UHGV virus genome: UHGV-2031204
Origin: a virus
DNA length: 64,000 bases
Strand: one strand, 5' to 3'
Part shown: positions 90 through 38,307 of the stretch, one piece after another
Numbering within the stretch: the first letter of the stretch is position 1
How the letters are laid out: the number at the start of each line of letters is the position of its first letter
Program-made: the position numbers and the translations under genes
Notes under the pieces: model-generated
What the model was told of the DNA's origin: nothing
Databases searched by the model: none
The model's input: only the letters and a program-made list of their open reading frames with translations

Positions 90-118
90 GGGGGGGGGGT
101 AAAGCACCTCCCCAGATC
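90..118 (+). terminator. G10 tract plus CCTCCCC stem element after upstream ORF (weak terminator or RNA structure)
   Basis: GGGGGGGGGG-TAAAGCACCTCCCC; near-identical element at 21370-21394. Confidence 0.35.
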
Positions 119-147: not shown

Positions 148-3100
148 ATGGCTAAAGCGGTAAAGAAAATTCGTTTACACGATTTACGTCCATACACCGG
201 GGATATAGGTGAAGGCGTTTTACTTTTTTCGAAAGACGAAAAAGATTATAAGTTACCCGTCCGCGAAATTGTTGCGGATATTGACACTGTCAGAAACGCA
301 GTTGCTGATGCACAAACAGCTGCAGCCAAATCGCAACAGTCTGCAACAGAAGCTACGCAAGCAAAAAATTTAGCAGAAACCGCGAAGCAACAAACTGACA
401 CGTTAGCTTCTACAGTTAGTGAGCAAGCGGGAACCGTTGCCACTAAAACTGCTGAGGTTAACAAAAAACACGCTGAAGTGTTGGCAGCGAAAACTGCCGT
501 AGATACTGTTTCACAATCAGTAAATGAGAAGGCTCAAGCTGTCGCTACAAGCGAACAATCGGTGACGGCTACAGCGGCTGATGTAACTAAGAAAGCAGAA
601 ACGGTTACGCAACAGGCCGGGCAAGTTCAACAAACCGCTACCAGTATCGCAGATACCGCAGCTTCAGTTGAGGCCAGTAAAGGTGCAGTGGAGAAGATTG
701 CTGCACAGGTCACGAAAGATAAGGAAAGTTCAGAAGGTGCAGCAACACGATCGGAATCAGCCGCTTTGCGTGCGGAGAAAATCGCTGCACAGGGTTTAGT
801 TGACGCTAGTACGACCGGTAAAGGTATCGTTAAACTTAACAATACCCTGACTAGCGAATCCGTGACTGAGGCTGCCACACCATCCACGGTTAAACAGCTG
901 AATGACGAATTACAGTTAAAAGCCAATAAACATTCGCCGAATTTTACGGGTAAACCGTCATCCCCAACACCCCCGAAGGACTCGAACGACACGAGCATCT
1001 CCACAACGGCCTGGGTGCGTGACGCGATTGCAGAACTGGTTGGTTCTTCACCCGAGACGTTAAACACCTTAGCGGAATTAGCTGAGGCGTTAGGTAATGA
1101 CCCTAACTTCGCAACAACGATTACTGAGGAACTTGCGCAGAAACAACCTCTCAGTCCGTTACTCACCGCTATTGCCGCAGTCACCACAGCGGCAAACAAA
1201 CTCATGTATTTCACCGGCAGTAATAAAGTCGGATTAACGGATTTTACAGAAACGGCCAGATCCTTGTTAGCGAAAGGGTCAACTGCGGATATCATCAATT
1301 TCTTGGGATTAAGAGCCACCGTAGATAAAGCGAATGGTGCGTTACAGAAGAACTCTAACGGCGCTGATATCCCAGATAAAGAAACGTTTGCTCGCAACAT
1401 CGGTCTATCTCCTGACACCTATCTGCGTTTCCGTGGCGAAATGCCTGTAGATGCTGATATTAACACATTTGCTCCAGATGCTAATTACACAGGAACGTGG
1501 GCTAAGTCGACATCAACCAATGCGTCGATGGCAAAACACTTCCCAGAAGACGGCGCAGTCGGTTATCTGGAAGTGTATAAAGCGGGCAACTACAGCGGCG
1601 CGCAACGTTTTACCTGTCGTAATGGTAACGTGTACAACCGTATGTTGTCAGGTGCGTGGAACGGAACTAATGGACCCTGGTCACCGTGGAGAATGGTAAC
1701 TACTGGTGTTCGTCCACTGTCTACCGCTATAGACTTGAACTCTCTGGGTGGCGCTGAGCATATGGGTAACTGGCGGAACTCGTCCAGTTCGTTAGCGGTG
1801 TTCGACCGACATTACCCCGAAGAAGGCGGTGGTGCGCAAGGCGTACTAGAAGTAATGGAAGGTGGTCTTTACGGACGGTTGCAGCGATACACTACGCGTC
1901 GTGGTACAATGTATGTCCGTGGTTTGACTGCAACGTGGGATTCATCAAACCCGCAATGGGAAGATTGGATTCAGGTTGGTTATCAGACTGACGGTGCTTT
2001 CTTTAAAGCCAATTTTAACGATCTCGTTAAACCAGGACGTTTCAGTGTCACTGGTGAAGCAACTAATGGTCCACTTACCGGTTCTTCTGGTGAAACCATA
2101 TTAGGCGTTTGTGAAGTTACCTTACGCTTAGACGGTACAGGGGTCGAACAGAATTATACTACATACGGTACGGGTGTAGAAACTAAAGGTCGTAAATTCC
2201 AACGTATCCGTACGGGTAACGCTTGGAGTGATTGGCGTGAGATTTTCACATCGTATTCGCTTCCGTTAGTATTAGGGGTTGGCGGTGAGCGTGCGAATGT
2301 TGATCCTTTAGACTGGCAAACCTATGACTTTAAACCAGGTGAGTTAATCTGTACGCCACTTAACACCATGAAAAACATTCCTGCGGGAATGGATTGGGGT
2401 GTTATTGACGGTAACTTAATTAGCATCCTGGTTGGACCATCAGATGGTGCATCCTCGGGTCGGAGCATGTTGGTTTGGCGTAGTACGGTGTCTACTGCCA
2501 ACTATCGATTCTTTGCCGTTCGCCTTGCAGGTAATCCGGGTAATCGTACTATTACTCCTCGACAGATGCCTGTATTGACCGCAGCACACACCTGGGCAGA
2601 AAAACAGACCTTTGCAAAAGGGTTAGCAGGTGAGTTAACAGGCAACGCTTCAACCGCCACTAAATTAAAGACGGCGCGTAGAATTGGTGGGGTCGCCTTC
2701 GATGGTAGCGGCGACGTTAACCTCCCAGGTGTTAACCAACAAGGTAATCAAAACACCACGGGTAACGCCGGTACAGCCACTAAACTTCAAACCGCTAGAA
2801 ATATTAACGGTGTGAGGTTCGATGGTTCTGCTGACATCAATATCAACACCTTGGTGGGTCGTGGTCGGGTTACCGCACTAACCGGTTCAAACAAAGGTAC
2901 GCCTGGTATTCAGATGTACGAAGTTTACAATAACGGCTATCCGTACGCTTATGGTAACTTACTCCATTTGGGTGGTGCTGCTGCGCTAGGCGAAGGCGAG
3001 TTGTTAATTGGTTGGTCGGGCACGAGTGGTGCGCACGCGCCAGTTTATATTCGTAGTCGACGTGATACGGCAGATGCGCCGTGGTCAGATTGGGCACAAG

Positions 3101-4770
3101 TTTATACTACACGTGACAGTATCCCTGGCGTAAATACCACAGGTAATCAGGACACTACTGGCAATGCCGCTACCGCGACGAAACTGAAAACCGCTCGCAG
3201 AATCGGCGGCGTTACCTTTGACGGTACTGGGGATATCAATTTACCGGGGGTTAACCAAGCCGGTAACCAGAATACGTCAGGTAATGCTGCAACAGCGACT
3301 AAACTCCAAACTGCTCGAAGTATCGGTGGTGTGGCTTTTGATGGTACTAAAGACATCAGTTTACCTGGGGTAAACCAAACTGGGAATCAGTCAACTACGG
3401 GGAACGCGGCCACTGCAACGAAGTTGCAGACAGCGCGTACCATTAATGGTATTGCTTTCGATGGCACGAAAAATATTGAACTGACCCCAAGAGCCATAGG
3501 CACGATTAACTCAACAACCATGTCTTTTAATGGTGGTGCCGGATGGTTCAAGCTGGCAACTGTAACTATGCCACAAGCCAGTTCCGTGGTTTACATAAGC
3601 ATGATTGGTGGCGCAGGGTTTAACGTTGGCTCCCCGCAGCAAGCTGGCATTTCTGAGCTGGTACTGCGTGCTGGAAATGGTAACCCAAAAGGTATTACTG
3701 GCGCATTATGGCGACGGACATCGGTTGGATTTACTAATTTTGCATGGGTGAATACATCTGGTGACACCTATGACATTTATGTAGAAATAGGTAATTACGC
3801 CACAGGGGTTAATATTCAGTGGGATTACACCAGTAATGCAAACGTAACAATCCACACAACACCAACTTATACAGCAGATAAACCAGCTGGCCTGACTGAT
3901 GGAACGGTATATGTCGTTTACAGTTCACACATTAAACCTACGGCGGGTGATGTTGGGGCGTTGCCATTATCCGGCGGCCAATTGAATGGAGCTTTGGGTA
4001 TTGGAACCGCCAATGCTTTAGGTGGGAACTCCATAGTTTTAGGGGATAATGACACCGGCCTTAAGCAGAACGGGGATGGCGTTCTAGATGTTTACGCCAA
4101 TAATGCTCACGTTTTACGCTTTACGAGTGGGGCTGTTCAAAGCAATAAACCTCTCAACGTTACTGGGGATATAAGAACCAATACTTGGGTTTATGCAAAT
4201 AGATATTCTATTAACAGCAACTCAGGTTCTTGGATTAGCATGAGAGACCATAACGTTATTTTTGGTCTTAATGCGGTAGGAACTAGTTCTGCTCAGGCAT
4301 TGTTAAGACAAGACCATGCTGATAGGAAATATTTTGTTGGTGGTTTAGGTAACAGTCAATTCGGCTTTTACATGATAAACAACTCACGTACTGATAATGG
4401 CACCGATGCCAATGCTTATTTGCAAAATGACGGTACTTGGGTTTGTGGTGGGAACGGTAACTTTAACGACGTTTATATACGTTCAGACGCCCGGCTGAAA
4501 AGTAATTTCTCTCCAATAACTAATGCATTGGAGAAGGTAAAGGAATTGTCAGGTTTAATATACGACAAAAAGGAGAACTTTAAATCCACTAATGTTCATC
4601 GTGAGGCTGGTGTTGTAGCGCAGACCTTACAAAAAGTGTTACCTGAGGCAGTTTCTACTTATAAAGACGCTAATGGTGAGGACGTTTTGACGGTCTCTAA
4701 TTCTGCTCAAATAGCTTTACTTATTGAGGCAATAAAGGAGTTGGCGGAGATAATTGAGACCAAGTTATAA
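148..4770 (+). CDS. Long tail fibre protein (distal-subunit-like) with tandem fibre repeats and C-terminal S74 intramolecular chaperone
   Basis: 1540 aa; Ala/Thr/Gln-rich N-terminal shaft; five tandem ~35-aa repeats TGNAATATKLxTAR.I.G..FDG..DI.L; C-terminal SDARLKSN…NALEKV…ALLIEAIKEL matches the S74 autoproteolytic chaperone signature. Confidence 0.85.
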   Translation: MAKAVKKIRLHDLRPYTGDIGEGVLLFSKDEKDYKLPVREIVADIDTVRNAVADAQTAAAKSQQSATEATQAKNLAETAKQQTDTLASTVSEQAGTVATKTAEVNKKHAEVLAAKTAVDTVSQSVNEKAQAVATSEQSVTATAADVTKKAETVTQQAGQVQQTATSIADTAASVEASKGAVEKIAAQVTKDKESSEGAATRSESAALRAEKIAAQGLVDASTTGKGIVKLNNTLTSESVTEAATPSTVKQLNDELQLKANKHSPNFTGKPSSPTPPKDSNDTSISTTAWVRDAIAELVGSSPETLNTLAELAEALGNDPNFATTITEELAQKQPLSPLLTAIAAVTTAANKLMYFTGSNKVGLTDFTETARSLLAKGSTADIINFLGLRATVDKANGALQKNSNGADIPDKETFARNIGLSPDTYLRFRGEMPVDADINTFAPDANYTGTWAKSTSTNASMAKHFPEDGAVGYLEVYKAGNYSGAQRFTCRNGNVYNRMLSGAWNGTNGPWSPWRMVTTGVRPLSTAIDLNSLGGAEHMGNWRNSSSSLAVFDRHYPEEGGGAQGVLEVMEGGLYGRLQRYTTRRGTMYVRGLTATWDSSNPQWEDWIQVGYQTDGAFFKANFNDLVKPGRFSVTGEATNGPLTGSSGETILGVCEVTLRLDGTGVEQNYTTYGTGVETKGRKFQRIRTGNAWSDWREIFTSYSLPLVLGVGGERANVDPLDWQTYDFKPGELICTPLNTMKNIPAGMDWGVIDGNLISILVGPSDGASSGRSMLVWRSTVSTANYRFFAVRLAGNPGNRTITPRQMPVLTAAHTWAEKQTFAKGLAGELTGNASTATKLKTARRIGGVAFDGSGDVNLPGVNQQGNQNTTGNAGTATKLQTARNINGVRFDGSADININTLVGRGRVTALTGSNKGTPGIQMYEVYNNGYPYAYGNLLHLGGAAALGEGELLIGWSGTSGAHAPVYIRSRRDTADAPWSDWAQVYTTRDSIPGVNTTGNQDTTGNAATATKLKTARRIGGVTFDGTGDINLPGVNQAGNQNTSGNAATATKLQTARSIGGVAFDGTKDISLPGVNQTGNQSTTGNAATATKLQTARTINGIAFDGTKNIELTPRAIGTINSTTMSFNGGAGWFKLATVTMPQASSVVYISMIGGAGFNVGSPQQAGISELVLRAGNGNPKGITGALWRRTSVGFTNFAWVNTSGDTYDIYVEIGNYATGVNIQWDYTSNANVTIHTTPTYTADKPAGLTDGTVYVVYSSHIKPTAGDVGALPLSGGQLNGALGIGTANALGGNSIVLGDNDTGLKQNGDGVLDVYANNAHVLRFTSGAVQSNKPLNVTGDIRTNTWVYANRYSINSNSGSWISMRDHNVIFGLNAVGTSSAQALLRQDHADRKYFVGGLGNSQFGFYMINNSRTDNGTDANAYLQNDGTWVCGGNGNFNDVYIRSDARLKSNFSPITNALEKVKELSGLIYDKKENFKSTNVHREAGVVAQTLQKVLPEAVSTYKDANGEDVLTVSNSAQIALLIEAIKELAEIIETKL

Positions 4771-4774
4771 TTAT

Positions 4775-4796
4775 CAGTGAGGGGTTCCCCTCACTG
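4775..4796 (+). terminator. Stem-loop after fibre gene (CAGTGAGGGG-TTCC-CCTCACTG), no T-run
   Basis: Perfect 9-bp inverted repeat immediately 3' of the stop; weak or attenuating. Confidence 0.3.
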
Positions 4797-4825
4797 ACTC
4801 ACAAGTACGTTATAAGGTGGTTATT

Positions 4826-5608
4826 TTGTCTGTATCAGCGACTCCCGGATGGATTGGTTCTTCAGCAAAAGCTGAAGCTGGTAATGGTTGGATGTCTGGC
4901 GCGATGCGCACACTTGGTGTGCCGGTCCCAGGCTGGATGTCGCAATTGGCGGGAAAATCAAAAGAGGCTCAGTATTCGATCGGGGCTAATCACAATTACA
5001 ATAAAGATACGCTTATTAACTATTTACGTTCCATAGGCTCTACTGCTGTCGTTGTGACCATTACAGGGGATTTAGTGTCTTATAGTAGCGGGGTTCCTTG
5101 TTTAGAGTTCCCTAGCAATCTTCCAAATTCGTATATTACCCTCATCATCAATCCTGGGGTTACAGTATACGGCAGAGGAGGCAACGGCGGTTCTAACTCA
5201 CCAGGCGGTGCAGGTGGAACCGCAATACAGAACGGAATAGGAAACAGACTGCGTATAACCAACCGTGGCGCTATTGCCGGAGGCGGTGGCGGCGGTGGCG
5301 GCGGTAACAGGGGTAGACTAATATTTGGTGGTGGCGGTGGTCGCCCATTCGGTGCTGGTGGGTCTTCCTCTCATATGAGTTCCGGTGCGGCTGCTGGTAC
5401 TATTTCCGCTCCTGGTAGAGGATCTGTTGGTGAGGGGTCTCTTAGTGCATATACAGGCGGTTCGGGTGGTAATGTCGGTGCTGGTGGAGGAAGATGTAAT
5501 ACTCATGGTAACGGTACAGAATATAACGGCGGGGCAGCTGGTGCTGCTGTTACTGGTAATGCGCCAAGATGGGACGCAGTAGGTGCAATATACGGTTCAC
5601 GTGTTTAA
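4826..5608 (+). CDS. T2-type gp38-like tail-fibre tip adhesin with polyglycine motifs
   Basis: GWIGSSAKAEAGNGWMS…GANHNYNKDTLINYLR…ITITGDLVSYS…CLEFPS…GGTAIQNGIGNRLRITNRGAIAGGGGGGGGG…GGGGGRPFGAGG resembles T2/T6-type gp38 (recalled, not searched). Start taken at TTG 4826 (RBS AAGGTGG 5 nt upstream); track start GTG 4817 is possible. Confidence 0.8.
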   Translation: MSVSATPGWIGSSAKAEAGNGWMSGAMRTLGVPVPGWMSQLAGKSKEAQYSIGANHNYNKDTLINYLRSIGSTAVVVTITGDLVSYSSGVPCLEFPSNLPNSYITLIINPGVTVYGRGGNGGSNSPGGAGGTAIQNGIGNRLRITNRGAIAGGGGGGGGGNRGRLIFGGGGGRPFGAGGSSSHMSSGAAAGTISAPGRGSVGEGSLSAYTGGSGGNVGAGGGRCNTHGNGTEYNGGAAGAAVTGNAPRWDAVGAIYGSRV

Positions 5609-5625
5609 TTAAAAAAGGAGGGTAG

Positions 5626-6129
5626 ATGGGGGTAGCGTCAGGATGGGTCGGATCTTCAGCTAGGAATGAAACTGGCCAACAATGGATGAGCGCTGCGGGT
5701 AGTAAATTAGGATTGGGTAGACCTTTTATGATGAGTCAAATGGTGGGACGATCTATGGGCTGTAAAATTGCAACCGCTGCATATAGCGATTCTTTAGGTA
5801 AGAAATGGGGCGCAGTAGGACCAAGCTGGCCGTTAAACCAGAAAAATCAGGGAACCATTCAAAACGCGGGTAACTGCGGGGTGGGAACTTTAGTAGGTAT
5901 TGAGTTACAGTTAACAACGATAGTTGCCAACGCAAAGCCTACTTTAGCGGTTTACTTACAAGGAGGCAGAGCCTCTAACATTACCGTAAATTTAGGTGGT
6001 AACACCTGCGCGCTGACCTATCAGCAGGTTATTAACGGACAGCATTATTACTGGACTAATAACATCAGCGCTGCGTTCCAAAACGTGATGAAATCAACCG
6101 GTACACTGAGAGATTTCAAAATTAGTTAA
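5626..6129 (+). CDS. gp38-like paralog: same N-terminal domain, unrelated non-glycine-rich C-terminal domain
   Basis: MGVASGWVGSSARNETGQQWMSAAG aligns with the N-terminus of 4826..5608; strong RBS AAGGAGGG; C-terminal 100 aa lack polyglycine tracts. Confidence 0.65.
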   Translation: MGVASGWVGSSARNETGQQWMSAAGSKLGLGRPFMMSQMVGRSMGCKIATAAYSDSLGKKWGAVGPSWPLNQKNQGTIQNAGNCGVGTLVGIELQLTTIVANAKPTLAVYLQGGRASNITVNLGGNTCALTYQQVINGQHYYWTNNISAAFQNVMKSTGTLRDFKIS

Positions 6130-6216
6130 TTATTTTTCAAGTGGAAGCGCTTGAAATCGTAATCGGGGGGATGTTTTAAAAGACTTTCTACGTCCCCCTA
6201 AACTTAAAGGTGTGTT

Positions 6217-8151
6217 ATGATGTTGGTGCGCGATATTAAAGATTACACCGAACTAGCAACATACGCGTTAAATTCGTTGTTAACGCTTGACAAACCAGAA
6301 ATACTCGATGAATCCGTCACGATAACGGTAGACCAGGAAACGAACTATGATTACGTTGGTCAAGTTACTGGTCGTGTTTCTGTAGCTAGTCCCACTGAAT
6401 ATAAAATTGCGATGTATACCTATACAACGGGAGAGTACGCGCAAGGTGAATCAGCATTAAACGAATCGGGTGAGTTTAATTTTAAACGAACATGGCCGGG
6501 GACAAAACAATTTCGTTTAATTAGAATTGCTGATGGCAAATGGATTTCTACGTTAGAGTTCCCATTGTGCATCCGTAGTTACCATATGCCAGAAAACGCG
6601 GACCCTGAAACGATCAGGATTATGAAAGATCGGTGTTATACTTACGATCAGGCTGTTGCTGCTCTTGCATTAATGGTATACGGTCATGAAAAGGTAGAAC
6701 AGTTTGTAAAAGGTCTTTTAGCGCTGGTCAATGAAGACGGGGGCGTTAAATTCTACGTAAACCGACTTTCAGCTAAATCTTCGCGAAATTATTACCGTAT
6801 GGGTAACGTCGCGTGGGTACTTTACGCTTTAGCTTTTTATCTTGAAAAATTTCCTGCCGGAAATCTAGCGGCACAGGTTCGTGAAAAATTAACACTTTCC
6901 TTAACCTGGCTGGAAACTTACAAGGTAACGCAGGAGACAGATCGCCGCAAAGGTTTATATCTTGGTGGAAAGGGTCGTTTTGTTACTACCGAATCAGGCG
7001 AACGTGTTTTTGAAGAAGACTACGTTGCACCTTTTGCGGCTTTAGAACATCAGGTAGATATTTGGTTCCTGTTCGAATTACTAGGGCGCGTCGGTTTTGA
7101 TGCATACCAACAAAAAGCAGCGGACTTCGGTAATAGAATAGTAGAAGCTTTTTGGATGGAAGACGAAGGACGTTTTCGTCAGGGTGTGAGAGAAACAGAA
7201 GATGATAACGCAGCTGCGTTAGATCAGTCCAGTTGGGGTGGGCTATTTGCGGCCAAATTTAAACCAGAGTACGCCGAACGTTGTCACGCTTTTATGGAGA
7301 AATTTCGTTCGGAAACCTCTGAGTGTCGTGGCTACACACCATACAAAACCGAGTTTGGTTACCCTAATGCTAAAGAAGGGGTGTGGGTTGAAGGTGCCGC
7401 CGGTGTTGCATTATTCGAACGTCAGTTAGGAAATGATAAACGTGCTGTTGAGATCATTAACGACTTAGATGTTCTTTTATCAGAATACGGTTATCGTGAT
7501 TCTTGCGATGATCCTACCTATGATACGCTGCCGCCGTGGTGGTCAACCACAAACACTGCATGGGTGCTTTTAGTCTGTAAGCCAAGTAATTTTTGGCTTG
7601 TAGATAAGTCTCCTTTAACGGAGAGATATAATCCGCAGAATAAATTTTTACCAGATATTTCATTAAACTCTTTAAATCTTGTAATTTCGTTAGTGAATCA
7701 CGATTTAAAAACAGATTACACGGAGTCTGATGTTGAAATCAGCAAGATTTCACTTAGCACGGAAGAAAATCGTGACACAACAGCGATAATGGAAATAAAA
7801 CGTCCTAATAAACGGTCGTTACAGATCTATTACAACCGTTTAACCGCAGCGCGGTGGTTAAACCAGCAACCTATTCTGGTAAAGGTCACCGGTAATGGTT
7901 TTACTACTCGCGATCTGATCGACGGAATTAACGCTGTCTGTGGTAGTAATTTACAAGCCGACGATCTTACCGATAAAACATTTACCGTAGGGAGGGACGC
8001 TGTAACATTACAAGTTTCACCCAACTCGCTAGGTTATAAAGGCCAATTCTCCGTTCTGGTTTTCGGTAACGACGAAGAAGCCGCTGTAGTAAAAGACAAC
8101 GATTTAATCGTTACTGCAGATAACCGTGTCTTAACATTCGGAGGTCACTAA
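6217..8151 (+). CDS. Hypothetical 644-aa protein, possible (alpha/alpha)6-toroid glycosidase-like fold
   Basis: RBS AAAGGTG; recurring aromatic helix-end motifs (NVAWVLYALAFY, VDIWFLFELL, SSWGGLFAA, GVWVEGAAGVALF, TNTAWVLLV). Fold assignment is inference. Confidence 0.55.
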   Translation: MMLVRDIKDYTELATYALNSLLTLDKPEILDESVTITVDQETNYDYVGQVTGRVSVASPTEYKIAMYTYTTGEYAQGESALNESGEFNFKRTWPGTKQFRLIRIADGKWISTLEFPLCIRSYHMPENADPETIRIMKDRCYTYDQAVAALALMVYGHEKVEQFVKGLLALVNEDGGVKFYVNRLSAKSSRNYYRMGNVAWVLYALAFYLEKFPAGNLAAQVREKLTLSLTWLETYKVTQETDRRKGLYLGGKGRFVTTESGERVFEEDYVAPFAALEHQVDIWFLFELLGRVGFDAYQQKAADFGNRIVEAFWMEDEGRFRQGVRETEDDNAAALDQSSWGGLFAAKFKPEYAERCHAFMEKFRSETSECRGYTPYKTEFGYPNAKEGVWVEGAAGVALFERQLGNDKRAVEIINDLDVLLSEYGYRDSCDDPTYDTLPPWWSTTNTAWVLLVCKPSNFWLVDKSPLTERYNPQNKFLPDISLNSLNLVISLVNHDLKTDYTESDVEISKISLSTEENRDTTAIMEIKRPNKRSLQIYYNRLTAARWLNQQPILVKVTGNGFTTRDLIDGINAVCGSNLQADDLTDKTFTVGRDAVTLQVSPNSLGYKGQFSVLVFGNDEEAAVVKDNDLIVTADNRVLTFGGH

Positions 8152-8771
8152 TGGCTGAACTGGTAGGAAAGGTACGCGTTCACGAACTACCGACACTTTC
8201 AGATGACGTCACAGGTGTAGTCGTCTTAGCGTCTAAAGAACAAACTGAATACCAACTCCCGATTGAGAACTTAGGGGGTGGTGAGGTTACAGTGAGTCCG
8301 TCGGCGAATAACATCCTTAAGTCTAACAGTGATGGGTTGTTTGTTAATGGTGCACATCCGATTGTACCAAAAATGGATGCAAAAACCGTATCGGGAAATA
8401 TGGTAGTAGAAAAAACGTTGACGGGTGGTGCGGTAATCTGCAAAACAACGGTTGACGTTAATAACAGGCTGGGTGTTACGCAATTATCAGGGGTATCAAT
8501 TTATAGCCAGTGTCTGTTGGAAAATAAATTGGTTTACCTGGCAGCAGATGGTGGTATTATTGATGCGTACTTCTACGTTAGTGGTACAAAAACCACAGCG
8601 AGTACAATAACCCACACCATTCGTGTTGTTTTAGCGAAGATACCCTCTAAAGTTATCGATATCACCGATTTGTCTGAAACCGAAGTACAATACGAGAATA
8701 GTAATTTACCTGTTAAGATCGTTATTAAACATCTTGCAGGGACAACACTTTCTCAGAACGGAATGAAATAA
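8151..8771 (+). CDS. Short fibre-like protein sharing the N-terminal anchor domain of the 1540-aa fibre
   Basis: MAELVGKVRVHELPTLSDDVTGVVVLASKEQTEYQLPI aligns with MAKAVKKIRLHDLRPYTGDIGEGVLLFSKDEKDYKLPV of ORF 148..4770; ATG overlaps the upstream stop, RBS GGAGGT. Confidence 0.6.
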   Translation: MAELVGKVRVHELPTLSDDVTGVVVLASKEQTEYQLPIENLGGGEVTVSPSANNILKSNSDGLFVNGAHPIVPKMDAKTVSGNMVVEKTLTGGAVICKTTVDVNNRLGVTQLSGVSIYSQCLLENKLVYLAADGGIIDAYFYVSGTKTTASTITHTIRVVLAKIPSKVIDITDLSETEVQYENSNLPVKIVIKHLAGTTLSQNGMK

Positions 8772-8777
8772 TTTTTA

Positions 8778-8818
8778 GGTAGTAGGGGCTTAGCCCCTAC
8801 TACCTTTTTTATTTTTTC
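8778..8818 (+). terminator. Rho-independent terminator
   Basis: GGTAGTAGGGG-CTTAG-CCCCTACTACC followed by a T-run. Confidence 0.7.
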
Positions 8819-15024: not shown

Positions 15025-16125
15025 ATGTTTAATATCGAAATTACCCCGCTCGTTAAAACTGAAATCCGTCCGGTTCCTGAAGCACAGTTACTTGATCAAC
15101 TTTATCGCATATTCCTGGATAAAGGTGTACATTTCCGTGTAGAGCAGGTCAACGATGAAAGCATCGTATTCTACTGGACTCACACCAATGATTACCTTTA
15201 CACTATCGTGAAAGAAATCGGTGAGTTACTCAACCCGGTAGCCGAGAACGCCAAGGTAAAAGCGACCGAGGCTGAGCAACCGAAAGTCGATGGCCAGCAG
15301 TGGCCTGGCAATGATGACACGTCATACGTAAATCAATATGATGTCGAAACGATCGAGAAAATTAAAGAAGCATTAAATATCCTCTATCCCGACGCCTTAT
15401 ACATTAGTCAAAAATACGACATGTTGGCTTTCAGGATGAAGGAATTCGATCCTAAGATCATGAAAGCTATTCGCATCATCGTTTCTCTGATCGTCAAAGA
15501 CGCCGTTCGCCTTATTTCGGTTCGCGATATCGGAAAAGAAGACGCAGATGAAATCATGCGTGGTGCTGTTCACGAATACCAGGGGAAAATTCGTGGGTCT
15601 AATTATGTCGACGGCACTCTAACTGTGCTTGTTGATAATGATCCTGACGTTATTAAATGGTTCGAAGAACTGTATTCCTTTACTTACACTGGCCCAAAGG
15701 CCAAAGTGATTAATGATACATTGACAGCAATCTACTCTAGCAGGGTAGAAACTAAACTCGAGAGCGAACGACTCACCATTAAGTTCCAGTTAGGTGACCT
15801 TTCCTTGCAAGATGAAATTCATAGCCTCATTGATGAGTTTGTTAACAACCGCCTACGTCTTCTAACGATCAATACTATCGGGGAAGAAGATGCTGATCTG
15901 TTTATGGGCGAGATTCTTCACACGTTTCCTGAGAAAGTCCGTCAGTGGACTTACACAGACAATACACTTACCATTCTACTCAACTATGAACCTGGCCTTA
16001 TTAAAAATTTAGAACGCCGTCTAGAGGATTTGTCGCTCAAACGTTTTCTTAAAGATGGCGCGCGTTCAGTCCTTAAAGGATTATTTTCTGATTGCAACTG
16101 CCCTATTTGCCAGAAGCATCGCTAA
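15025..16125 (+). CDS. Hypothetical protein with internal duplication and C-terminal CNCPIC motif
   Basis: 366-aa ORF; repeats around IGKEDADEIMRG / IGEEDADLFMGE. Confidence 0.55.
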   Translation: MFNIEITPLVKTEIRPVPEAQLLDQLYRIFLDKGVHFRVEQVNDESIVFYWTHTNDYLYTIVKEIGELLNPVAENAKVKATEAEQPKVDGQQWPGNDDTSYVNQYDVETIEKIKEALNILYPDALYISQKYDMLAFRMKEFDPKIMKAIRIIVSLIVKDAVRLISVRDIGKEDADEIMRGAVHEYQGKIRGSNYVDGTLTVLVDNDPDVIKWFEELYSFTYTGPKAKVINDTLTAIYSSRVETKLESERLTIKFQLGDLSLQDEIHSLIDEFVNNRLRLLTINTIGEEDADLFMGEILHTFPEKVRQWTYTDNTLTILLNYEPGLIKNLERRLEDLSLKRFLKDGARSVLKGLFSDCNCPICQKHR

Positions 16126-16143
16126 TTAACTAAATTCGTACAA

Positions 16144-16175
16144 GGGGTGGTTTACCACCCCTCTATTATTGTATT
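16144..16175 (+). terminator. Putative terminator
   Basis: GGGGTGGTTTACCACCCC followed by T-rich tract. Confidence 0.5.
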
Positions 16176-16194
16176 TACCTAAAGGAGTATTAAA

Positions 16195-16626
16195 ATGTTT
16201 TTCGTATTAAATGATGAAATCCGTAACTACATTCGTAACAACCCTATTGCTCTGGGCGTTTTAGCAGGTTTCTGTCGTCCAAATACTGATTTCGATTTAG
16301 TTAAGTTAGAAGAATATCAGGAAATTGTGAATACTAACTACATGCACATCTGTAGCTGGGGTAAACGTCCTCGCGAAGAGTACCCTGTAGGTGAGTTAGG
16401 TGACACTATGCATCGTGACCAGAATCTGATGCACGAATTCGTTGAATACACACTGGAAAATCTTAACTATCCGCTTCTGGTCGACACTGTACCAGAAATG
16501 GTTGACGAATGGTTAAGTCGTGTTTACAATGACCGTACTGCCAGCACTCTACTGAGTCAGATGTCGCAAACTTCTCGCGATATCGATACCCGGACCCTGA
16601 TGTACTTAGCACACAACGTTCGTTAA
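16195..16626 (+). CDS. Hypothetical protein, paralog of 14574..15002
   Basis: 143-aa ORF, RBS AAAGGAG. Confidence 0.5.
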   Translation: MFFVLNDEIRNYIRNNPIALGVLAGFCRPNTDFDLVKLEEYQEIVNTNYMHICSWGKRPREEYPVGELGDTMHRDQNLMHEFVEYTLENLNYPLLVDTVPEMVDEWLSRVYNDRTASTLLSQMSQTSRDIDTRTLMYLAHNVR

Positions 16627-16633
16627 GCTCTCA

Positions 16634-16680
16634 CCGCTATAGACTTCGGTCTATAGCGGAATTAATTTTCTTTCCCTTTT
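16634..16680 (+). terminator. Rho-independent terminator
   Basis: CCGCTATAGAC-TTCG-GTCTATAGCGG followed by T-rich run. Confidence 0.7.
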
Positions 16681-16792
16681 CTTTTTTGTTATTTTGACGC
16701 TACTTTGCTTACCCTCTACTCGACTATTCCTATGCTGGCTGAGGGATGTAAAACAACCTCTTAAACCTTTTTACTTATTGTGAGTTAACGCG

Positions 16793-17641
16793 ATGTCTCT
16801 TACGTCAAAACAGAAACTGCTAAAACTCATCAACACTGAAAACAATATTGTTCCGCCATTGACCTTCAGTGATGTTGATATCGGCGAACCTACTGGTACT
16901 GGGGTTGATACCCAGGTGGTTCTGACTTCTAAACTCAAAGGCGACGAGTCTACTACTTTAACGGTGACTTACCATCGTCGTAATTTGCCCGAATACCTAA
17001 CAGGTGAGTTGGTATTCGGTAACGACGGTGTTGTAACCGCTGCAGATTTGCTTAATGCGATCAACGCAAAATACGATTTAAATATTCTGCCGTCGGATAT
17101 CGTTGATGCGAAAGTTGAAGGTAAAACCCATCAGCTTACCGCTAACGAGAAATCCTACGAGTGGTGTGGCGAAGTAACACTTACGCTACGCGATCCTATT
17201 GATCTGGCTAAACTGTTACCTGTTACTCAATTAGAAAACCTGGTAGAGTATCCGTCCACTAAGAAAGGTAACGCGGCAGTTTATTCTTATCCGATTGATT
17301 TCACCGCAGAAAAAGATTACCTTGATCCTATTACCATTAACGACACCGTCGACCTGGCCGAGTTAGCCACTAAACTGACTAACGTCGTTGATGAGAAATG
17401 GGTAAGTGTACCTAAGAACGCTGCTAATAACCTGTACGGTGCTAAGGTTATCTACGATGGCCCTACCGCAGGTTTCGAAGGTGCAAATACGAAGTACACG
17501 CGTGTGCTGGTACTCACCCTAAGCGGTATGTGTTCTAACCTGACCGGTAAACTGTTAATTCACTTTAACGGAACCGATCGTCCGAAGTCGAAGATTGAAT
17601 TAGCCAAGACTAATTCGGTCTTACCGGGATTCTTAGATTAA
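16793..17641 (+). CDS. Member of a four-paralog family of small proteins, possibly virion-associated
   Basis: 282 aa; N-terminal pattern shared with 17655, 20822, 21430. Confidence 0.55.
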   Translation: MSLTSKQKLLKLINTENNIVPPLTFSDVDIGEPTGTGVDTQVVLTSKLKGDESTTLTVTYHRRNLPEYLTGELVFGNDGVVTAADLLNAINAKYDLNILPSDIVDAKVEGKTHQLTANEKSYEWCGEVTLTLRDPIDLAKLLPVTQLENLVEYPSTKKGNAAVYSYPIDFTAEKDYLDPITINDTVDLAELATKLTNVVDEKWVSVPKNAANNLYGAKVIYDGPTAGFEGANTKYTRVLVLTLSGMCSNLTGKLLIHFNGTDRPKSKIELAKTNSVLPGFLD

Positions 17642-17654
17642 GAGGATTACAGTA

Positions 17655-18152
17655 ATGACCAGTCAAGAAACTATCTTCGACCTTATTAAAAAGGCTAACC
17701 CAGACGCTGAGTTCGACACCGCCAAAGTCACGCTGGGCGATCCGGTTGTGACCACCGGTACTTACAACACCGAAATTACGGTTGCGTCAATTAAGAATCT
17801 CGGTTACACTAACGAACAAACGTTCCAGTATAACCGTATTGACGCAGGTTTATATTTCCTGAACGTATTACCGAAGCTGTTGGTAGAATCTGCAACGACT
17901 ACCGCTGACTTACTGCCCGTCATTAACGAGCAGTACAGCCTAACCCTTACAGAAGACGACGTGTGGGTAGAGCAGGTCGGCGAGTTACCGTTAGACGGTA
18001 GCGCAATCGAACACGGTATTTTCTTCCGCCCTGAATGTTTAACCTGGGTAGGAGGTTTTACGGTGCGCGTTGCACGTAAAACTGCTGAAGATGCTGAACC
18101 TGCGCCAAAAGCAGCTAAAGCACGTACAACTCGTGCACGAAAATCCAAGTAA
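17655..18152 (+). CDS. Paralog-family member with basic Ala/Lys-rich C-terminal tail
   Basis: 165 aa; ends …EPAPKAAKARTTRARKSK. Confidence 0.55.
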   Translation: MTSQETIFDLIKKANPDAEFDTAKVTLGDPVVTTGTYNTEITVASIKNLGYTNEQTFQYNRIDAGLYFLNVLPKLLVESATTTADLLPVINEQYSLTLTEDDVWVEQVGELPLDGSAIEHGIFFRPECLTWVGGFTVRVARKTAEDAEPAPKAAKARTTRARKSK

Positions 18153-18157
18153 GATTT

Positions 18158-18193
18158 GGGTGGGGTAAAACCCACCCAACGTTTTTCTTTTTT
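18158..18193 (+). terminator. Rho-independent terminator
   Basis: GGGTGGGG-TAAAA-CCCCACCC plus T-run. Confidence 0.7.
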
Positions 18194-18216
18194 GTGTAAA
18201 ATGGGGGTTAAACAAA

Positions 18217-18807
18217 ATGGCTGAACGTTGGACTAAAGAAGGTATTATTGAATCCAAAACGGATTTAGAAGGCGGGTACGTCAACGACCCTGACGACTTA
18301 GGTGCAGAAACGAACCACGGTATCACGGTAACGACTGCACGTGAGTATGGTTATAAAGGGAAAATGAAAGACCTTACCCGTGCTCAAGCTTTTGACATTT
18401 ACGATCGTGGTTGGTGGAAGAAACTCAAACTCGATGAGATTTTTGCTATCTCGCCTTTACTGGCTGACCGGATGTTTGATTTCGGAATTAACGCAGGTCG
18501 TGCCAACTGCGTGAAATCGCTCCAGCGTATTCTCAACGTGTTGAACAACGAAGGTAAACTCTACGCGGACATCGATGCTGACGGTGGAATGGGGCCTAAA
18601 ACGCTGGGCGCGTTGAACGCGTATCTGAAATACCGTAAAGATAAAGGGTTAAGCATTTTAATCTTTGCGTTAATCTCGCACCAAGTAACTTACTACACGG
18701 AAATCTCCGAAAAACGTAAGAGAAACGAGAAATACACCTACGGCTGGTACGGCCGCGTGTTCAGAGAAATGGCAGATTATGCGGTGAAAGCGGGGTTAGT
18801 AAAATGA
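18217..18807 (+). CDS. Endolysin-like GH108 glycosidase with C-terminal peptidoglycan-binding region
   Basis: EGGYVNDPDDLGAETNHGIT matches the GH108 N-terminal signature. Confidence 0.8.
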   Translation: MAERWTKEGIIESKTDLEGGYVNDPDDLGAETNHGITVTTAREYGYKGKMKDLTRAQAFDIYDRGWWKKLKLDEIFAISPLLADRMFDFGINAGRANCVKSLQRILNVLNNEGKLYADIDADGGMGPKTLGALNAYLKYRKDKGLSILIFALISHQVTYYTEISEKRKRNEKYTYGWYGRVFREMADYAVKAGLVK

Positions 18808-22694: not shown

Positions 22695-23242
22695 TCATCG
22701 TCTCCTTTAATCAACCCTAATTCGATTAACAGTTCAAAATCGATATGACGGAATCTTGTGTCGAAATCCGATTCCCAATCGATACGGATACCCTGGCATT
22801 CTTCTGGCGTTAGCTCAGGAAAAATCACGGTATTAAATTTCTCTCGCTCATCGTAAAACCCATCAATCGGTGAGTTCGGGTTACGTGTTGCGAAGATAGT
22901 AATGCCGGGGAAGGACAATGCCAACACAGTGATAGATTCTGCGCTGGGTTCGCTTAAAGAGCGGCGTAGAAACGCAATTTTGTGACGTGGGAAATCCAAT
23001 ACCCGTTCTTCAAACCCTGGGTTACGTTTTTCAATTTCCGCGACCGACAGGTCAGTAAGTTCGGTGCAGTACATTGGGATGATTACAGTCACGCCGTGAC
23101 GAATCAGTAAGCGTTTTACGTCATCGGTAAAATCTTCACCGTTAATCACCGCATAGCAACCGAATAGCTTACTGTTTTCCAGAAACTTATCCAGAAGTCG
23201 AATTCTACGCTTCGTAATATTGTTGATCAGAATTGGTTTCAT
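22670..23242 (-). CDS. Hypothetical protein in the radical-SAM operon
   Basis: 190-aa ORF; RBS AAGAGAAG; overlaps the 3' end of the upstream gene. Confidence 0.5.
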   Translation of the reverse strand: MKPILINNITKRRIRLLDKFLENSKLFGCYAVINGEDFTDDVKRLLIRHGVTVIIPMYCTELTDLSVAEIEKRNPGFEERVLDFPRHKIAFLRRSLSEPSAESITVLALSFPGITIFATRNPNSPIDGFYDEREKFNTVIFPELTPEECQGIRIDWESDFDTRFRHIDFELLIELGLIKGDDECLLLVKA

Positions 23243-24527
23243 CTTTGGCTTCTCTTAATAATTTTTCCTTTTGGGCACGTTCACGAACACAGCGTGGGCA
23301 ATAACACATACTCGTGTCGTGGAACGCTTTTGCTGACGTCGTACCCATCTTCTGTTTCCAGTATTCCGCCACCATCAGTTTCGCTGTCGTCCAGCCGCAC
23401 TGGCGTCGTTCAGCGTGATACGCTTTACGGTCTTCTAACGTTCCTTCCCCGTTCTCGTAAGAAGCCGCCGCACAGCTACCACAAGCGTGTTTCATCGGAC
23501 AACCTAAACAGGTTTCTGGGTAGTTGGTATATTGCGTTTGAATCTCTTCTAGCAGCTTACCGTTGTCCAGACTGACGAATTCCCGACCTACCAACTCAAA
23601 CACCGCAGAACGCGACGTTACCGTTGACATAAAGCGGTTACAGCCAAAGATCTTACGGTCAAATCCTAAGCACGTCATGTGCGTTAATGTCCCACAGAAC
23701 GGACGTAAGCGTTCTGGGTTCAACCGTACGGTGTCATTATACAGTAACTGGTCACGCCAGTTCGGTTCCCAAATCGTATCGAAATCCAACCCTTCTGGAA
23801 TGATGTGCGATAAGATATTACGTGGGTTGGTGTGTAATCCTTTCTCAACCCAGTAATCTATCACATCCATCATCTGTAAAGCGATTGACGTCGCCATGCT
23901 ACGTGGCATAACGTCTTCGAAAGTTACGTTTCCAGAAATTGTCCCACCGCCAGTAATGTCAATTAATGACTTCATCCCCGCAGCATAGAACGGCAGCGTT
24001 TCTAACGTAAAGGTTGCTTTTACGCCGAGCTCTGCAATGCCAACCTCTTTTAAGTAGTTATAGCCACGTACTGCGGCTTCGTAAGAACCCTGGCGTGTTG
24101 TTGTGAAGATACGATAACGGTCATGGGATTCAGGTAAGCCATCAATCGAAACCCCAACCGAAAGTTTATCTTTCCAACGTTCTACAATCTCACGGTTCAA
24201 CGGACGATCTAACAGCGTTCCGTTCGTGGAGATACTAAACATAAACGGTCGGTTGTGTTCTTTACACAACTGCTCAGCGGTTTCAAACGCAGCCAGCAGC
24301 AGTTTAGGCTGCATGAACGGTTCGCCACCGATAATGTCGATAATAACTTCAACATTCGGTTCGTTTTTATCGCGTTCAAAACAGGCGTGCAAGAAATCAA
24401 CAATATCTGCCGCTTTGTTGTTACGTGGGTACTTACGTTCGTAACAATATTCGCAGTCCAGGTTACATGAAAGGTTGGTTACGATCTGATACGTTAACTG
24501 CTTAGGGAATTCATTTACTTGACTCAT
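23205..24527 (-). CDS. Radical SAM enzyme with C-terminal SPASM-like Cys cluster
   Basis: CNLDCEYC (CxxxCxxC) near N-terminus; C-terminal cysteines CLGCPMKHACGSC…CGW…CYCPRC. Confidence 0.75.
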   Translation of the reverse strand: MSQVNEFPKQLTYQIVTNLSCNLDCEYCYERKYPRNNKAADIVDFLHACFERDKNEPNVEVIIDIIGGEPFMQPKLLLAAFETAEQLCKEHNRPFMFSISTNGTLLDRPLNREIVERWKDKLSVGVSIDGLPESHDRYRIFTTTRQGSYEAAVRGYNYLKEVGIAELGVKATFTLETLPFYAAGMKSLIDITGGGTISGNVTFEDVMPRSMATSIALQMMDVIDYWVEKGLHTNPRNILSHIIPEGLDFDTIWEPNWRDQLLYNDTVRLNPERLRPFCGTLTHMTCLGFDRKIFGCNRFMSTVTSRSAVFELVGREFVSLDNGKLLEEIQTQYTNYPETCLGCPMKHACGSCAAASYENGEGTLEDRKAYHAERRQCGWTTAKLMVAEYWKQKMGTTSAKAFHDTSMCYCPRCVRERAQKEKLLREAKDETNSDQQYYEA

Positions 24528-28813: not shown

Positions 28814-31800
28814 TTAAGATGTAAACATAAGATTGAACTGGAGCTTATCGATATCGCGCGTTTGTGCTGGGTTAACCGCGTCGTACGTGGTTGCCACGTA
28901 AACCGTTAATGTCCCGTCAGCAAACGAGGTTTTCACCGGTGGTGTAGTCCCTGTTTGTCCGTCGGTTACAATGACAACAGGTTGAGCTGGAAGTTGATGG
29001 AACTGACCCTTAACCGCTTTGTACACCAAACCAGATTGCGCTGCTAACTCCGTGTCGGTATACACGATAAACGGTGTGTCGATATCTGTCTGTTTAATGA
29101 CAGTGTTCGTCTCAACGTCAATCAGCTGAACAGCACCGAACTTCATACGGTAGCTATCGTATTCATTTTTTGGAATGACAAACGTAGCATGTACACGGAC
29201 TTCTTCGGCGGGTTTAAATCCGGCGTGTTCTTTTTCCAGATAGCTGTTAGCAGTTAACGTTACTGTCTGTTCAGTCATCGTACCACCAGACTGGTTTAAC
29301 CCGTAACGAACTTGGGTTATACCTGTCGGAGCCGCAAGCCTGATTTTTAGTCTACGGTTAGCGGTGCCGGGATTACCAGGCACTCTAACACGCAGGCTCA
29401 AAGCCAGATATGCATTCGTACCGGTAGTCGGTTTCGTATACGCACCCAACCACTTCATATTCGCGGTTGCCGCTTGACTGTTCTCAGAAGCAGTAGCCGC
29501 TACAACGTTTGCAGCGACCGCTTTCTGCCAGAACTGGTCAGCGCAGTTCTCATACGCTACTCTACCGATACTTTTATAACCTGCATAGGTTTCCTGTATC
29601 GGCAGCTTGGGGCGTGTTGTGATCCCGCTCAACGCATTCCATCTCTGACCATCGACATACCCCGCACCATTGCTCGCGGATGCCGTGGGGGCTTTCAGCG
29701 GTTGGTTAACCAAGGTTTGGAGTGGACCCGTTTTTCGATCGTACGCCGCTGCAACGTCGTGCTGATCTCTAACAGCAGCGTGTTCTTCTAATTCACGAAC
29801 CCTGCCTAACCGTTTCACTTTATCGATGTTAATAGCAACTATACGCTTTTTATCGGTTGTAACTGTACCAACAAATAATCGCGAACTCGTATCCGGCAGC
29901 TTTTCCAGACCGATCTGATATTGAGCTTTCGAACCTACAAGAGCAGCATGAACATAGAACGTCTGGTTAGCATGGTTTTCTGGGAATTCGTTGCTTAAAT
30001 CCACCGACCACGTCGGTAATGTATAGCTATTACTACCGAAATCTAACCTGACCTCTTCCGTCAAGTATAGAATCCAACCTTCCGCGGTTTCCACGCCTGC
30101 GATAATAACTGCCTGCCCCGCTGTTGAGAATGTGGTATCATTAACGAACTCTTCGACTGTGTATGCGTTACCTGAACAGAAAACGCGGTCAGCTTTAGAG
30201 AAAATTCGTGCCATCTTGTCCCAATTACCCGCACCCATGTAACAACCAGATTCTGGGTTGTGGGCAGGAGCCATCTGACGCAACTGTGACTTACCGGGAA
30301 CTCGCGTCCAACCCGACCCAGGGTTAAAGGTATACTTCGCAGCGTAACCCAAAGCATTTAGGTCCCCGATATTCCGTATTGTCAGCGTATAAGGCAGCCA
30401 TAGACCGAAGTTTACACCGTCGGCAGAAGCAAAAATTGGCTGGCCTACACGTCGCGTTTTATTACCCGCTTCTTCCCTCAGAGACTGATAACTTAAGCCG
30501 TAATCAAGGTCTAAGAACCAATCAACGAGTTTGAAAGTAGCCGAGTTAAAACGTAGATAACCATTTTCTTTAGTCGGACTTACCATGAAGTAATAGATGT
30601 CGAGGACCCGACGTCCGTTACTCAAGATTTTCATGCATGAAACTTGTAATAAGTCGAACTCACAAACGGTGTTAATACCTAACATCCAAAGAGCAAACAA
30701 TGCATTGCCGCTTTGGTGTGCTGCACTGATGCGCTCGTTCGCGTAACCATTTGCCTGACCAGATGGTGCGCCATCGACAATCATCCTAATCATCTTCTGG
30801 CGATCCGCTTCCTCTAACGTCAGCCGTTCTGATGACAGGGCAAAGTTACCGTAGATGTTTCGATATGGGAAGGTTTCCGCTTTCGTCAAATACCAACCGT
30901 TTAACTGACCGTGACGCTCCTCTGGAGTCATACATGCAGCCATACAGCTTAACTGTTCGTAAAGCGTCGGATCAACTTCTCGGCGGTTGTTGTTCGGACC
31001 ATAGCCGCTATATCCGGGAACGTCATAAGGTTTACTTGGGTCAACTTCTACTTCGATCGTATAACGGTTACGTGGATTGGATAGCCATACTTTGTTTGAG
31101 CCACCGATACCAACAGGATGAGAAAGACCGATGGTATAGATAGAACCACGACCTTTATCCCAAGTAAATGTTGCTTCGCCTGAGGTATTGTTTGGGTTAT
31201 CGTAACGCAGATAATCAAAAAACTCTTTGCCTTGCGTACTTTTAATAGTAACGTTCGGCATCTGGTCCGCATCGTTAATCTGCCAGCAGGAAAGCATCAT
31301 CCCTGAGACATTAGGTTTAGCATACATCGCAAAACAACGATTGTTTGCCTGTCCACCGCCCCACTTACGACTGGTTTCTACAGTTGAGCCATCCGCGAAC
31401 GATAGTCTGGTAGCATCAACCTTAATGGGGAAACGTTCGGCACCCTCTAACGTAACTCTGCCCGTTAACGTATCGATTGTGAAACTTGTTGACCATTGAC
31501 GGAAATTAATCGTCGTACCGTCGGCAGCCGCAAACCACACGCTGGGCACATGATTCACACGAATCACGCTGTCGCGTACCGCACAAGCATGGTTACATTC
31601 TGGACCGTGAACAAAGTTGTGACCGATTGTCCATTTAGCCCGTGCCTCTGGCGGGTAATACGTAAAGAACTGACCAGTCTGCGACTCTTCGGTCTTCTGA
31701 CCAATTCGTAAACAGAGGTTATCTCCGAATTGCCCCATTTCTCCGGTTAGGGTTACACGTTCAAATTCTAACTCAGTATTAGCAGACAAGTCGGCTTTAC

Positions 31801-33997: not shown

Positions 33998-34091
33998 CGT
34001 AAAGACTCCTACTTTTAAATAAAATGGATACCCCTCCCCATTACAGGGAGGGGTTACCTACGGACACACAACTGCCCGCAGGCAGCCTGTC

Positions 34092-38297: not shown

Positions 38298-38307
38298 AAA
38301 AATCTCC

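Follow-up and report, generated by a model that had tools for sequence, protein, structure and literature searches.

Of all host-range determinants of T-even phages, adhesins of the gene product 38 (gp38) type are understood best and engineered most readily. In phage S16, gp38 docks on the base of gp37 through three conserved tryptophan residues at the apex of three helices; the gp38 of T4 differs greatly in sequence and is absent from the virion (PMC6851490). In the present study we analysed a 64,000-nucleotide (nt) stretch of the virus genome UHGV-2031204 (hereafter the window), in which two co-oriented open reading frames (ORFs) at nt 4826–6129, 17 bases apart, follow a long tail-fibre gene. 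Our results suggest that ORF1 and ORF2 both encode gp38-type tip adhesins, which would compete for one docking site on that fibre, giving mixed fibres and a dual receptor specificity. We put the probability of this reading, drawn from sequence comparison, at about 0.6.

ORF1 matched the Pfam family GP38 (PF05268) at 5.8e-69 over residues 47–260, covering 218 of the 218 profile positions, as well as Gp38_N (PF21721) at 4.4e-11, and among the PHROG families it matched phrog_2056 ('tail fiber protein; host specificity') at 1.9e-90. Residues 8–258 aligned with S16 gp38 (6F45_D, 9.2e-50), with Trp9, Trp22 and Trp37 falling on all three docking tryptophan positions of S16. The docking domain comprises residues 1–47 (nt 4826–4966), and the rest is a β-helix with a polyglycine-sandwich specificity domain containing glycine runs of nine and five residues (G9 and G5). 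Judged by these matches, ORF1 is a full-length T2/S16-type gp38 adhesin. Its start codon is TTG, 5 bases after an AAGGTGG Shine–Dalgarno sequence (4814–4820), with an in-frame GTG at 4817 as an alternative start. The glycine-rich and hypervariable (GRM/HVS) region of ORF1 was 82–88% identical to the gp38 of Bas45 PaulHMueller, FL18 and FL20, which are OmpA-dependent phages (PMC8594841; PMC12032242), and because the resemblance lies in the specificity region, ORF1 probably binds OmpA. In the metagenomic relative L027, the T2-type gp38 gene lacks 132 nt (44 residues, in frame, corresponding to window positions 5218–5349), the nine-glycine tract included (L027 ~5720–5731), a gap that may be genuine or may stem from the assembly collapsing across the repeated glycine codons.

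ORF2 starts with ATG, four bases downstream of AGGAGG. Its only Pfam match was Gp38_N (2.9e-20; residues 1–40, 40 of the 40 profile positions), and residues 1–161 matched phrog_1121 ('tail fiber adhesin') at 4.3e-45. The docking domain spans residues 1–45 (nt 5626–5760) and is followed by a family-specific head, a β-domain of ~120 residues (46–166), for which no relative was found among solved structures. The AlphaFold2 model of ORF2 (predicted local distance difference test score 87) contained three short helices at residues 8–16, 21–27 and 36–39, and the three docking positions, Trp7, Trp20 and Met35, each lay immediately before one of these predicted helices. The docking domains of ORF1 and ORF2 shared 20 identities in 38 positions (53%; BLASTP E 4e-9), beyond the first ~45 residues no similarity between the two proteins was detectable, and no glycine run of more than two residues was present in ORF2. 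A tblastn search of the 64-kb window recovered the N-terminal similarity (E 2e-8) and no third copy of the docking domain. Thus the preliminary description of this DNA, which had taken ORF1 for a T2-type gp38-like adhesin with polyglycine tracts and ORF2 for a protein that keeps the N-terminal ~45 residues ahead of an unrelated, glycine-tract-free C-terminal domain, was borne out in each of these points, the N-terminal similarity being significant. Its picture of different heads on the same docking domain also stood; however, the ORF2 head is not a one-off, as it belongs to an annotated family.

Full-length homologues of ORF2 were found in the phage-plasmid CMS-2020a (63% identity), in the Shiga toxin 2 (Stx2) phages P13374, phi191 and 75/02 (59%), and as the second of two tandem gp38 genes in the Edwardsiella phages PEi20/PEi26. 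A search of 1.8 billion cluster representatives returned a modest set of homologues of 160–180 residues aligning with ORF2 over its full length, and phrog_1121-type proteins occur in Stx phages, SSU5-like phage-plasmids and some T4-like phages. Going by these alignments, ORF2 is a member of the already annotated short gp38-like adhesin family phrog_1121 and no orphan; the literature searched yielded no receptor or structure for this family. The ratio of non-synonymous to synonymous substitution rates (dN/dS) of ORF2 was 0.085 against its orthologue in L004 and 0.21 against that in L007, showing purifying selection on the gene and its orthologues. Winklervirus, the genus of a distant relative, depends on OmpW, the binding protein being unmapped in that work (PMC10132071). 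The adhesin of Karamvirus Pet-CM3-4 was considered as experimental evidence on the short type and rejected, its GRM/HVS motifs being of the T2 type. Three very long proteins (P0023, P0026 and P0061; 1795–2972 residues) matched short stretches of the ORF2 head 7–14 times each, which may reflect a repeated head-related domain or a repeat/low-complexity similarity.

Next, we examined the fibre on which these proteins would act. It matched the Pfam families Peptidase_S74 (PF13884, 5.7e-15) and the Phage_fiber_2 repeat (PF03406, 1.7e-10). Residues 1323–1451 (nt 4114–4500) resembled residues 320–447 of the Mu tail fibre protein S (PDB 5yvq_A, 1.1e-36), with an S74 chaperone domain, not the Mu tip, coming after this distal domain. 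The last ~270 residues aligned with the C-terminal portion of S16 gp37 that has been crystallised (6f45_A, 1e-11), chaperone part included; loss of the chaperone followed by capping with gp38 would therefore be the standard S16/T2 arrangement. The Pfam S74 match begins at residue 1446, and by analogy with other S74 chaperone domains autocleavage is predicted between Ser1446 and Asp1447 (nt 4485/4486; ...NFNDVYIRS/DARLK, the slash marking the cut), so that the mature C-terminal end of the cleaved fibre would be the docking base for gp38. This fibre was the single protein with an S74 chaperone end within the window. Across the window and its relatives, two types of fibre end were found, a Mu-S-like type A ending in ...GGNGNFNDVYIRS/D and a type B ending in ...GNGNGSFNDVQIRS/D, and the motif G-N-G-x-F-N-D-V-x-I-R-S was conserved at the end of both. 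As both tip types share this extreme C-terminus of the mature fibre, one socket could take both plugs. Secondary BLAST matches within the window and to the relatives also revealed internal repeats of the fibre gene (...GN(Q/A)xT(S/T)GNAxTATKLxTAR.IGGVxFDG...) at 2638–2840, 3141–3480 and 3260–3471.

The fibre gene, ORF1, ORF2 and two further fibre-like genes are bracketed by hairpins at 93–113 and 8777–8805 (Table 1). From the fibre gene to ORF2, the terminator scan gave weak 5–6-bp stems within coding sequences only, the intergenic gaps containing none, and on this basis the fibre gene, ORF1 and ORF2 are assigned to one terminator-bounded operon, in which the two adhesin genes are each preceded by a good Shine–Dalgarno site.

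We then compared the locus with its relatives, given here as L-numbered loci, which included 67 fetched from IMG/VR. The relatives keep the gene order of the window and differ in the adhesin slot. In L004–L006 the ORF2 type stands alone, its start three bases after the fibre gene; in L007–L020 a third short gp38 type is followed by a gene for a 76-residue Cor-like lipoprotein and then by the ORF2 orthologue; and in the IMG/VR contigs L027, L028 and L029 a T2-type gene is followed by a short-type gene, as in the window. In every relative examined the ORF2 type lies after the same fibre gene, directly or behind another gp38, and L004–L006, Stx phage P13374 and CMS-2020a CP054387 have no gp38 other than this type behind the fibre. 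Two separate Gp38_N genes were present in four of the 67 IMG/VR loci. One contig, the phage-plasmid L067, carried a single fibre with a short gp38, then a Cor-like gene and then a T2-type gp38 behind it, an arrangement which indicates that dual adhesins are not confined to this jumbo-phage clade. Taken together, the recurrence of the pair, the cases with ORF2 type as sole gp38, the shared docking domain and the conserved fibre end suggest that both genes serve this fibre.

The window and L027–L029 were 72–93% identical in nucleotide sequence over matched blocks, and the pair occurred with both fibre ends, with tip type A in the window and L028 and with tip type B in L027 and L029. The short-head allele of L028 and L029 was a different one, 63–65% identical to ORF2. 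Homology of the window to L028, L029, CMS-2020a and Stx phage P13374 ended at nt 5778 (ORF2 codon 51), an exchange breakpoint six codons beyond the end of the ORF2 docking domain. As far as these alignments tell, the ORF2 head is exchanged as a module with the docking domain kept, and the pair is maintained across diverged genomes while tips and heads are swapped as modules. We also considered whether tip A and ORF1 had arrived as one cassette, leaving ORF2 without its cognate tip. The idea was based on the association of tip A with the T2 type alone in CMS-2020a CP053388 and of tip B with the short type alone in CP054387 and P13374, and it was rejected because L027 and L029 join tip B with both T2-type and short-type genes, showing that the tip type does not dictate the adhesin type.

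The Cor-like genes bear on the receptors of the short type. The L007 gene (8557–8787; phrog_1119, a superinfection-exclusion lipoprotein family, 1.3e-25) lies 11 bases 3' of the third short gp38 type, and that of L067 (7461–7706) lies ~0.9 kb 3' of the short gp38, with two small ORFs between. In phi80 and N15, among other phages, Cor acts by blocking FhuA. A Cor gene beside a sister head type is what would be expected next to a receptor-binding protein, and its position suggests that the third short gp38 head binds FhuA or a similar receptor and, by analogy, that the short gp38 family targets outer-membrane proteins.

From these observations we propose the following mechanism. The 1540-residue fibre would trimerise aided by its C-terminal S74 chaperone domain, which would then cut itself off at ...NDVYIRS/D to leave a three-fold symmetric base. 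A single gp38-type monomer would cap this base through its N-terminal three-helix docking domain, and since ORF1 and ORF2 both carry that domain, the two proteins, made from the same late operon, would compete for one site. The fibre tip would accordingly be either the polyglycine-sandwich head of ORF1 or the small β-domain head of ORF2, with the virion carrying a mixture. With OmpA as the presumed target of the ORF1 head and a different outer-membrane structure as that of the ORF2 head, the phage could adsorb via either receptor, which would widen its host range and protect it against the loss of one receptor.

The preliminary description had also proposed that the receptor specificity is dual or switchable. 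A dual specificity is the probable reading of the data described above, whereas nothing in the window supported a switchable one. No invertase or recombinase gene and no inversion segment was noticed beside ORF1 and ORF2, neither inverted repeats nor invertases having been searched for; the two adhesin genes point the same way within one operon, and only 5 bases make up the G-run at the start of ORF2 (5626–5632). Read in this way, the window has no switch. In one group of relatives (L007–L020), however, a G-run directly after the ATG of the ORF2 orthologue has, according to the assembly, 8, 9, 10 or 11 bases (for example at L008 8800–8812, and around 2300 in L011–L020), and the orthologue was in frame in ~8 of the 24 contigs read from this group. 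These lengths come from consensus assemblies of essentially one study, in which homopolymer errors are possible. The ORF2 orthologue of L007–L020 is a candidate phase-variable adhesin with a possible poly-G on/off switch. A G-run of eight bases (G8) was found at the start of the ORF2 orthologue in L027, and a second G-run, ~57–63 nt after the stop codon of the ORF2 orthologue, was 9–11 bases long and variable in the relatives (L004–L027) and 6 bases long in the window. Metagenome contigs of the Joint Genome Institute were scanned for the relatives' poly-G gene start, and nothing was found.

Several observations weigh against the proposal that ORF1 and ORF2 share one docking site and are both in use. 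The third docking position of ORF2 is Met instead of Trp; the same Met is present in homologues that are the sole gp38 of their phage, and the position is taken by W, N, Y, L, Q or R elsewhere in the family. The docking domains are only 53% identical, and Trojet et al. described lock-and-key subtypes of the gp37 tip and the gp38 N-terminus (PMC3157838). The non-ATG start of ORF1 (TTG or GTG) and the 44-residue deletion in the T2-type gene of L027 count on the same side. Furthermore, the ORF2 orthologue was out of frame in ~16 of the 24 assemblies of the L007–L020 group and is therefore dispensable there. Finally, the region 3965–5625, comprising the distal fibre and ORF1, had no nucleotide match in L004–L010 and was 93% identical in L028, so that one adhesin partner may be a recent arrival.

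Part of this evidence would also be accounted for if one adhesin were unused, a recombination passenger that is intact for now and at best a spare cassette. The existence of single-gp38 relatives (L004–L006), the frameshifts in about two-thirds of the L007–L020 assemblies, the L027 deletion and the mosaic locus, with 3965–5625 unmatched in L004–L010, all fit such a passenger. Yet four diverged genomes retain the pair, although their tip types and head alleles vary, the dN/dS of ORF2 is only 0.085–0.21, and the gene has an ATG and a strong Shine–Dalgarno site within the same operon, so that we regard this explanation as unlikely. A different possibility is that both adhesins are used on two fibres, ORF2 docking on another one encoded beyond the window. 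Only 64 kb of a genome of ~225 kb is visible, and the operon contains further fibre-like genes (the 644- and 206-residue ORFs), but the long fibre is the sole S74-ended protein in the window and the ORF2 type follows the same fibre gene in every relative examined, which makes a separate fibre for ORF2 highly improbable.

It could also be argued that ORF2 is no adhesin at all and acts, like T4 gp38, as an assembly factor or transient fibre cap that is absent from the finished virion. Such genes are often named 'distal long tail fiber assembly catalyst' in database records, and the fold of the ORF2 head, for which no relative was found among solved structures, offers no clue to binding. The fibre, however, has its own chaperone domain, and the docking domain of ORF2 belongs with the permanent adhesins of S16 type and not with T4 gp38; no fibre-assembly chaperone family appeared among the Pfam, PHROG and NCBIfam matches of ORF1 or ORF2, T4 gp38 itself not having been aligned. 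Moreover, the docking domain is retained whereas the hypervariable head is exchanged as a module, and some phages have the ORF2 type as their only gp38, with nothing else to tip the fibre. An assembly role for ORF2 has in our view very little chance of being correct, and we therefore retain the reading of two competing tip adhesins on one fibre.

A broader proposal can be made, which we offer tentatively and consider possible but rather doubtful. The cleaved fibre end, G-N-G-x-F-N-D-V-x-I-R-S, would be a universal socket and Gp38_N a universal plug, shared by jumbo phages, SSU5-like phage-plasmids, Stx podophages and T4-like phages; the clade of the window would routinely load two heads from tandem genes onto one fibre type, giving mosaic virions, and part of the clade would toggle the second head by poly-G slippage. 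If true, random poly-G toggling would be a bet-hedging host-range system so far undescribed for enterobacterial phages.

Table 1 Features of the tail-fibre and adhesin locus (coordinates in the window)
Feature	Position	Strand	Evidence
Terminator-like hairpin 5' of the fibre gene, left operon boundary	93..113	+	Terminator scan
Long tail-fibre gene, 1540 aa	148..4770	+	Pfam, PDB matches
S74 intramolecular chaperone domain of the fibre	4483..4770	+	Pfam, S16 gp37 alignment
GC-rich hairpin between fibre gene and ORF1	4774..4797	+	Folding energy, alignment
ORF1, T2/S16-type gp38 tip adhesin (by homology), 260 aa	4826..5608	+	Pfam, PDB, PHROG
ORF2, short gp38-like tip adhesin (by homology), 167 aa	5626..6129	+	Pfam Gp38_N, phrog_1121, AlphaFold2 model, dN/dS
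Structured intergenic region 3' of ORF2, two hairpins	6135..6199	+	Folding
Co-operonic 644-aa protein, fibre-C-terminus-like + DUF7941	6217..8151	+	Pfam, PHROG
Co-operonic 206-aa protein, N-terminus resembling that of the long fibre	8151..8771	+	tblastn, phrog_33169
Strong intrinsic terminator, 13-bp stem + T-run, right operon boundary	8777..8805	+	Terminator scan

The hairpin between the fibre gene and ORF1 has a 10-bp stem (CAGTGAGGGG/CCCCTCACTG) with no T-run 3' of it and a folding energy of -20 kcal/mol (z -3.1). Its stem core is kept at the same place in phage-plasmid CMS-2020a CP053388 (L021 ~5923–5953), whose fibre ends similarly and whose T2-type gp38 has a GTG start, as the window has TTG or GTG at ORF1. 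The hairpin together with the non-ATG start may reduce adhesin output relative to the fibre. Downstream of ORF2, the second hairpin of the structured region is built on the six-base G-run mentioned above (6165–6170).

In the 644-residue protein that follows, a domain resembling tail-fibre C-termini (phrog_13714/7032) at residues 7–464 is fused to DUF7941 at residues 480–634, and the relatives have only a 170-residue DUF7941 protein at this position; this ORF is probably another host-recognition module, outside the gp38 pair. The first ~41 residues of the 206-residue ORF were 37% identical to the N-terminus of the long fibre (window 148–315; tblastn E 9e-7), and in L007–L010 this ORF is replaced by a 706-residue SASA/DUF6645 protein with a similar N-terminus (L007 9920–12040). 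It is possibly a second, short, swappable fibre on the same virion attachment site.

As to its origin, the window derives from a jumbo phage of enterobacteria, distantly related to SPN3US. The region 15207–18354, which contains radical-SAM genes, was ~72% identical in nucleotide sequence to SPN3US-like Seoulvirus phages, and no other region of the window matched them. A further radical-SAM gene lies at 23205–24527, and three paralogous virion structural proteins of 1401–1727 residues (phrog_7449, 8078 and 7557) are encoded in a row on the minus strand at 28814–42630; both features are typical of SPN3US-like jumbo phages. The nearest relatives were metagenomic contigs of 221–226 kb and contigs within Salmonella assemblies. 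A tblastn search with a conserved neighbouring protein of 283 residues against 50,697 phage records gave no match, and these records thus hold no deposited isolate of the clade.

Both protein families are already annotated, and so are tandem short gp38 genes in PEi20/PEi26. In the literature searched, however, we found no description of a gp38-type adhesin in a jumbo phage, nor of a heterotypic pair of heads behind one fibre or of its recurrent modular maintenance. If shown in jumbo phages, two unrelated heads on one fibre would be a simple natural design for dual-receptor phages, which are harder for bacteria to escape. The same reading, if true, points to an uncharacterised family of small-head adhesins in Stx phages of the O104:H4-outbreak type and in phage-plasmids, and if the variable poly-G run of the relatives is real, phase-variable receptor binding would reach beyond Campylobacter phages to phages of Enterobacteriaceae.

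The closest described systems include the gp37/gp38 tips of T2, T6 and S16 (Straboviridae): ORF1 is a full-length member with three docking tryptophans, and the fibre ends in a chaperone domain predicted to be self-cleaving, with the adhesin gene next to it. The locus differs in belonging to a jumbo phage rather than a T4-like phage, in a shaft unrelated to gp37, in the Mu-S-like distal domain and in the second gp38-like gene. T4 gp38 has in common with the gp38-like genes of the window its gene name and its place after gene 37. With the PHROG 1121 adhesins of P13374 (ORF66), phi191, CMS-2020a and the SSU5 phage-plasmids, a family also present in some T4-like phages of Proteus, Kosakonia and Edwardsiella, ORF2 shares a full-length match and the same place after an S74-ended fibre, although those phages usually have the short type as their only gp38. 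The Edwardsiella phages PEi20/PEi26 (Kanagawavirus) also have two Gp38_N genes in a row after gene 37, the second with an ORF2-type head; unlike in the window, both are of the short type and the phage is T4-like, and these genes are annotated with no study found in the literature searched. Campylobacter phages have hypermutable poly-G tracts in receptor-binding genes (Sorensen et al. 2021, as cited in PMC10579305), which the G8–G11 runs after the ATG in L007–L020 resemble, in contrast with the G5 run of the window. Finally, the Mu G segment and the P1 C segment likewise place two alternative receptor-binding ends side by side for one shaft, and the Mu-S-like distal domain is shared; in Mu and P1, however, inversion picks one alternative per genome, whereas the two genes of the window run in the same direction in one operon.

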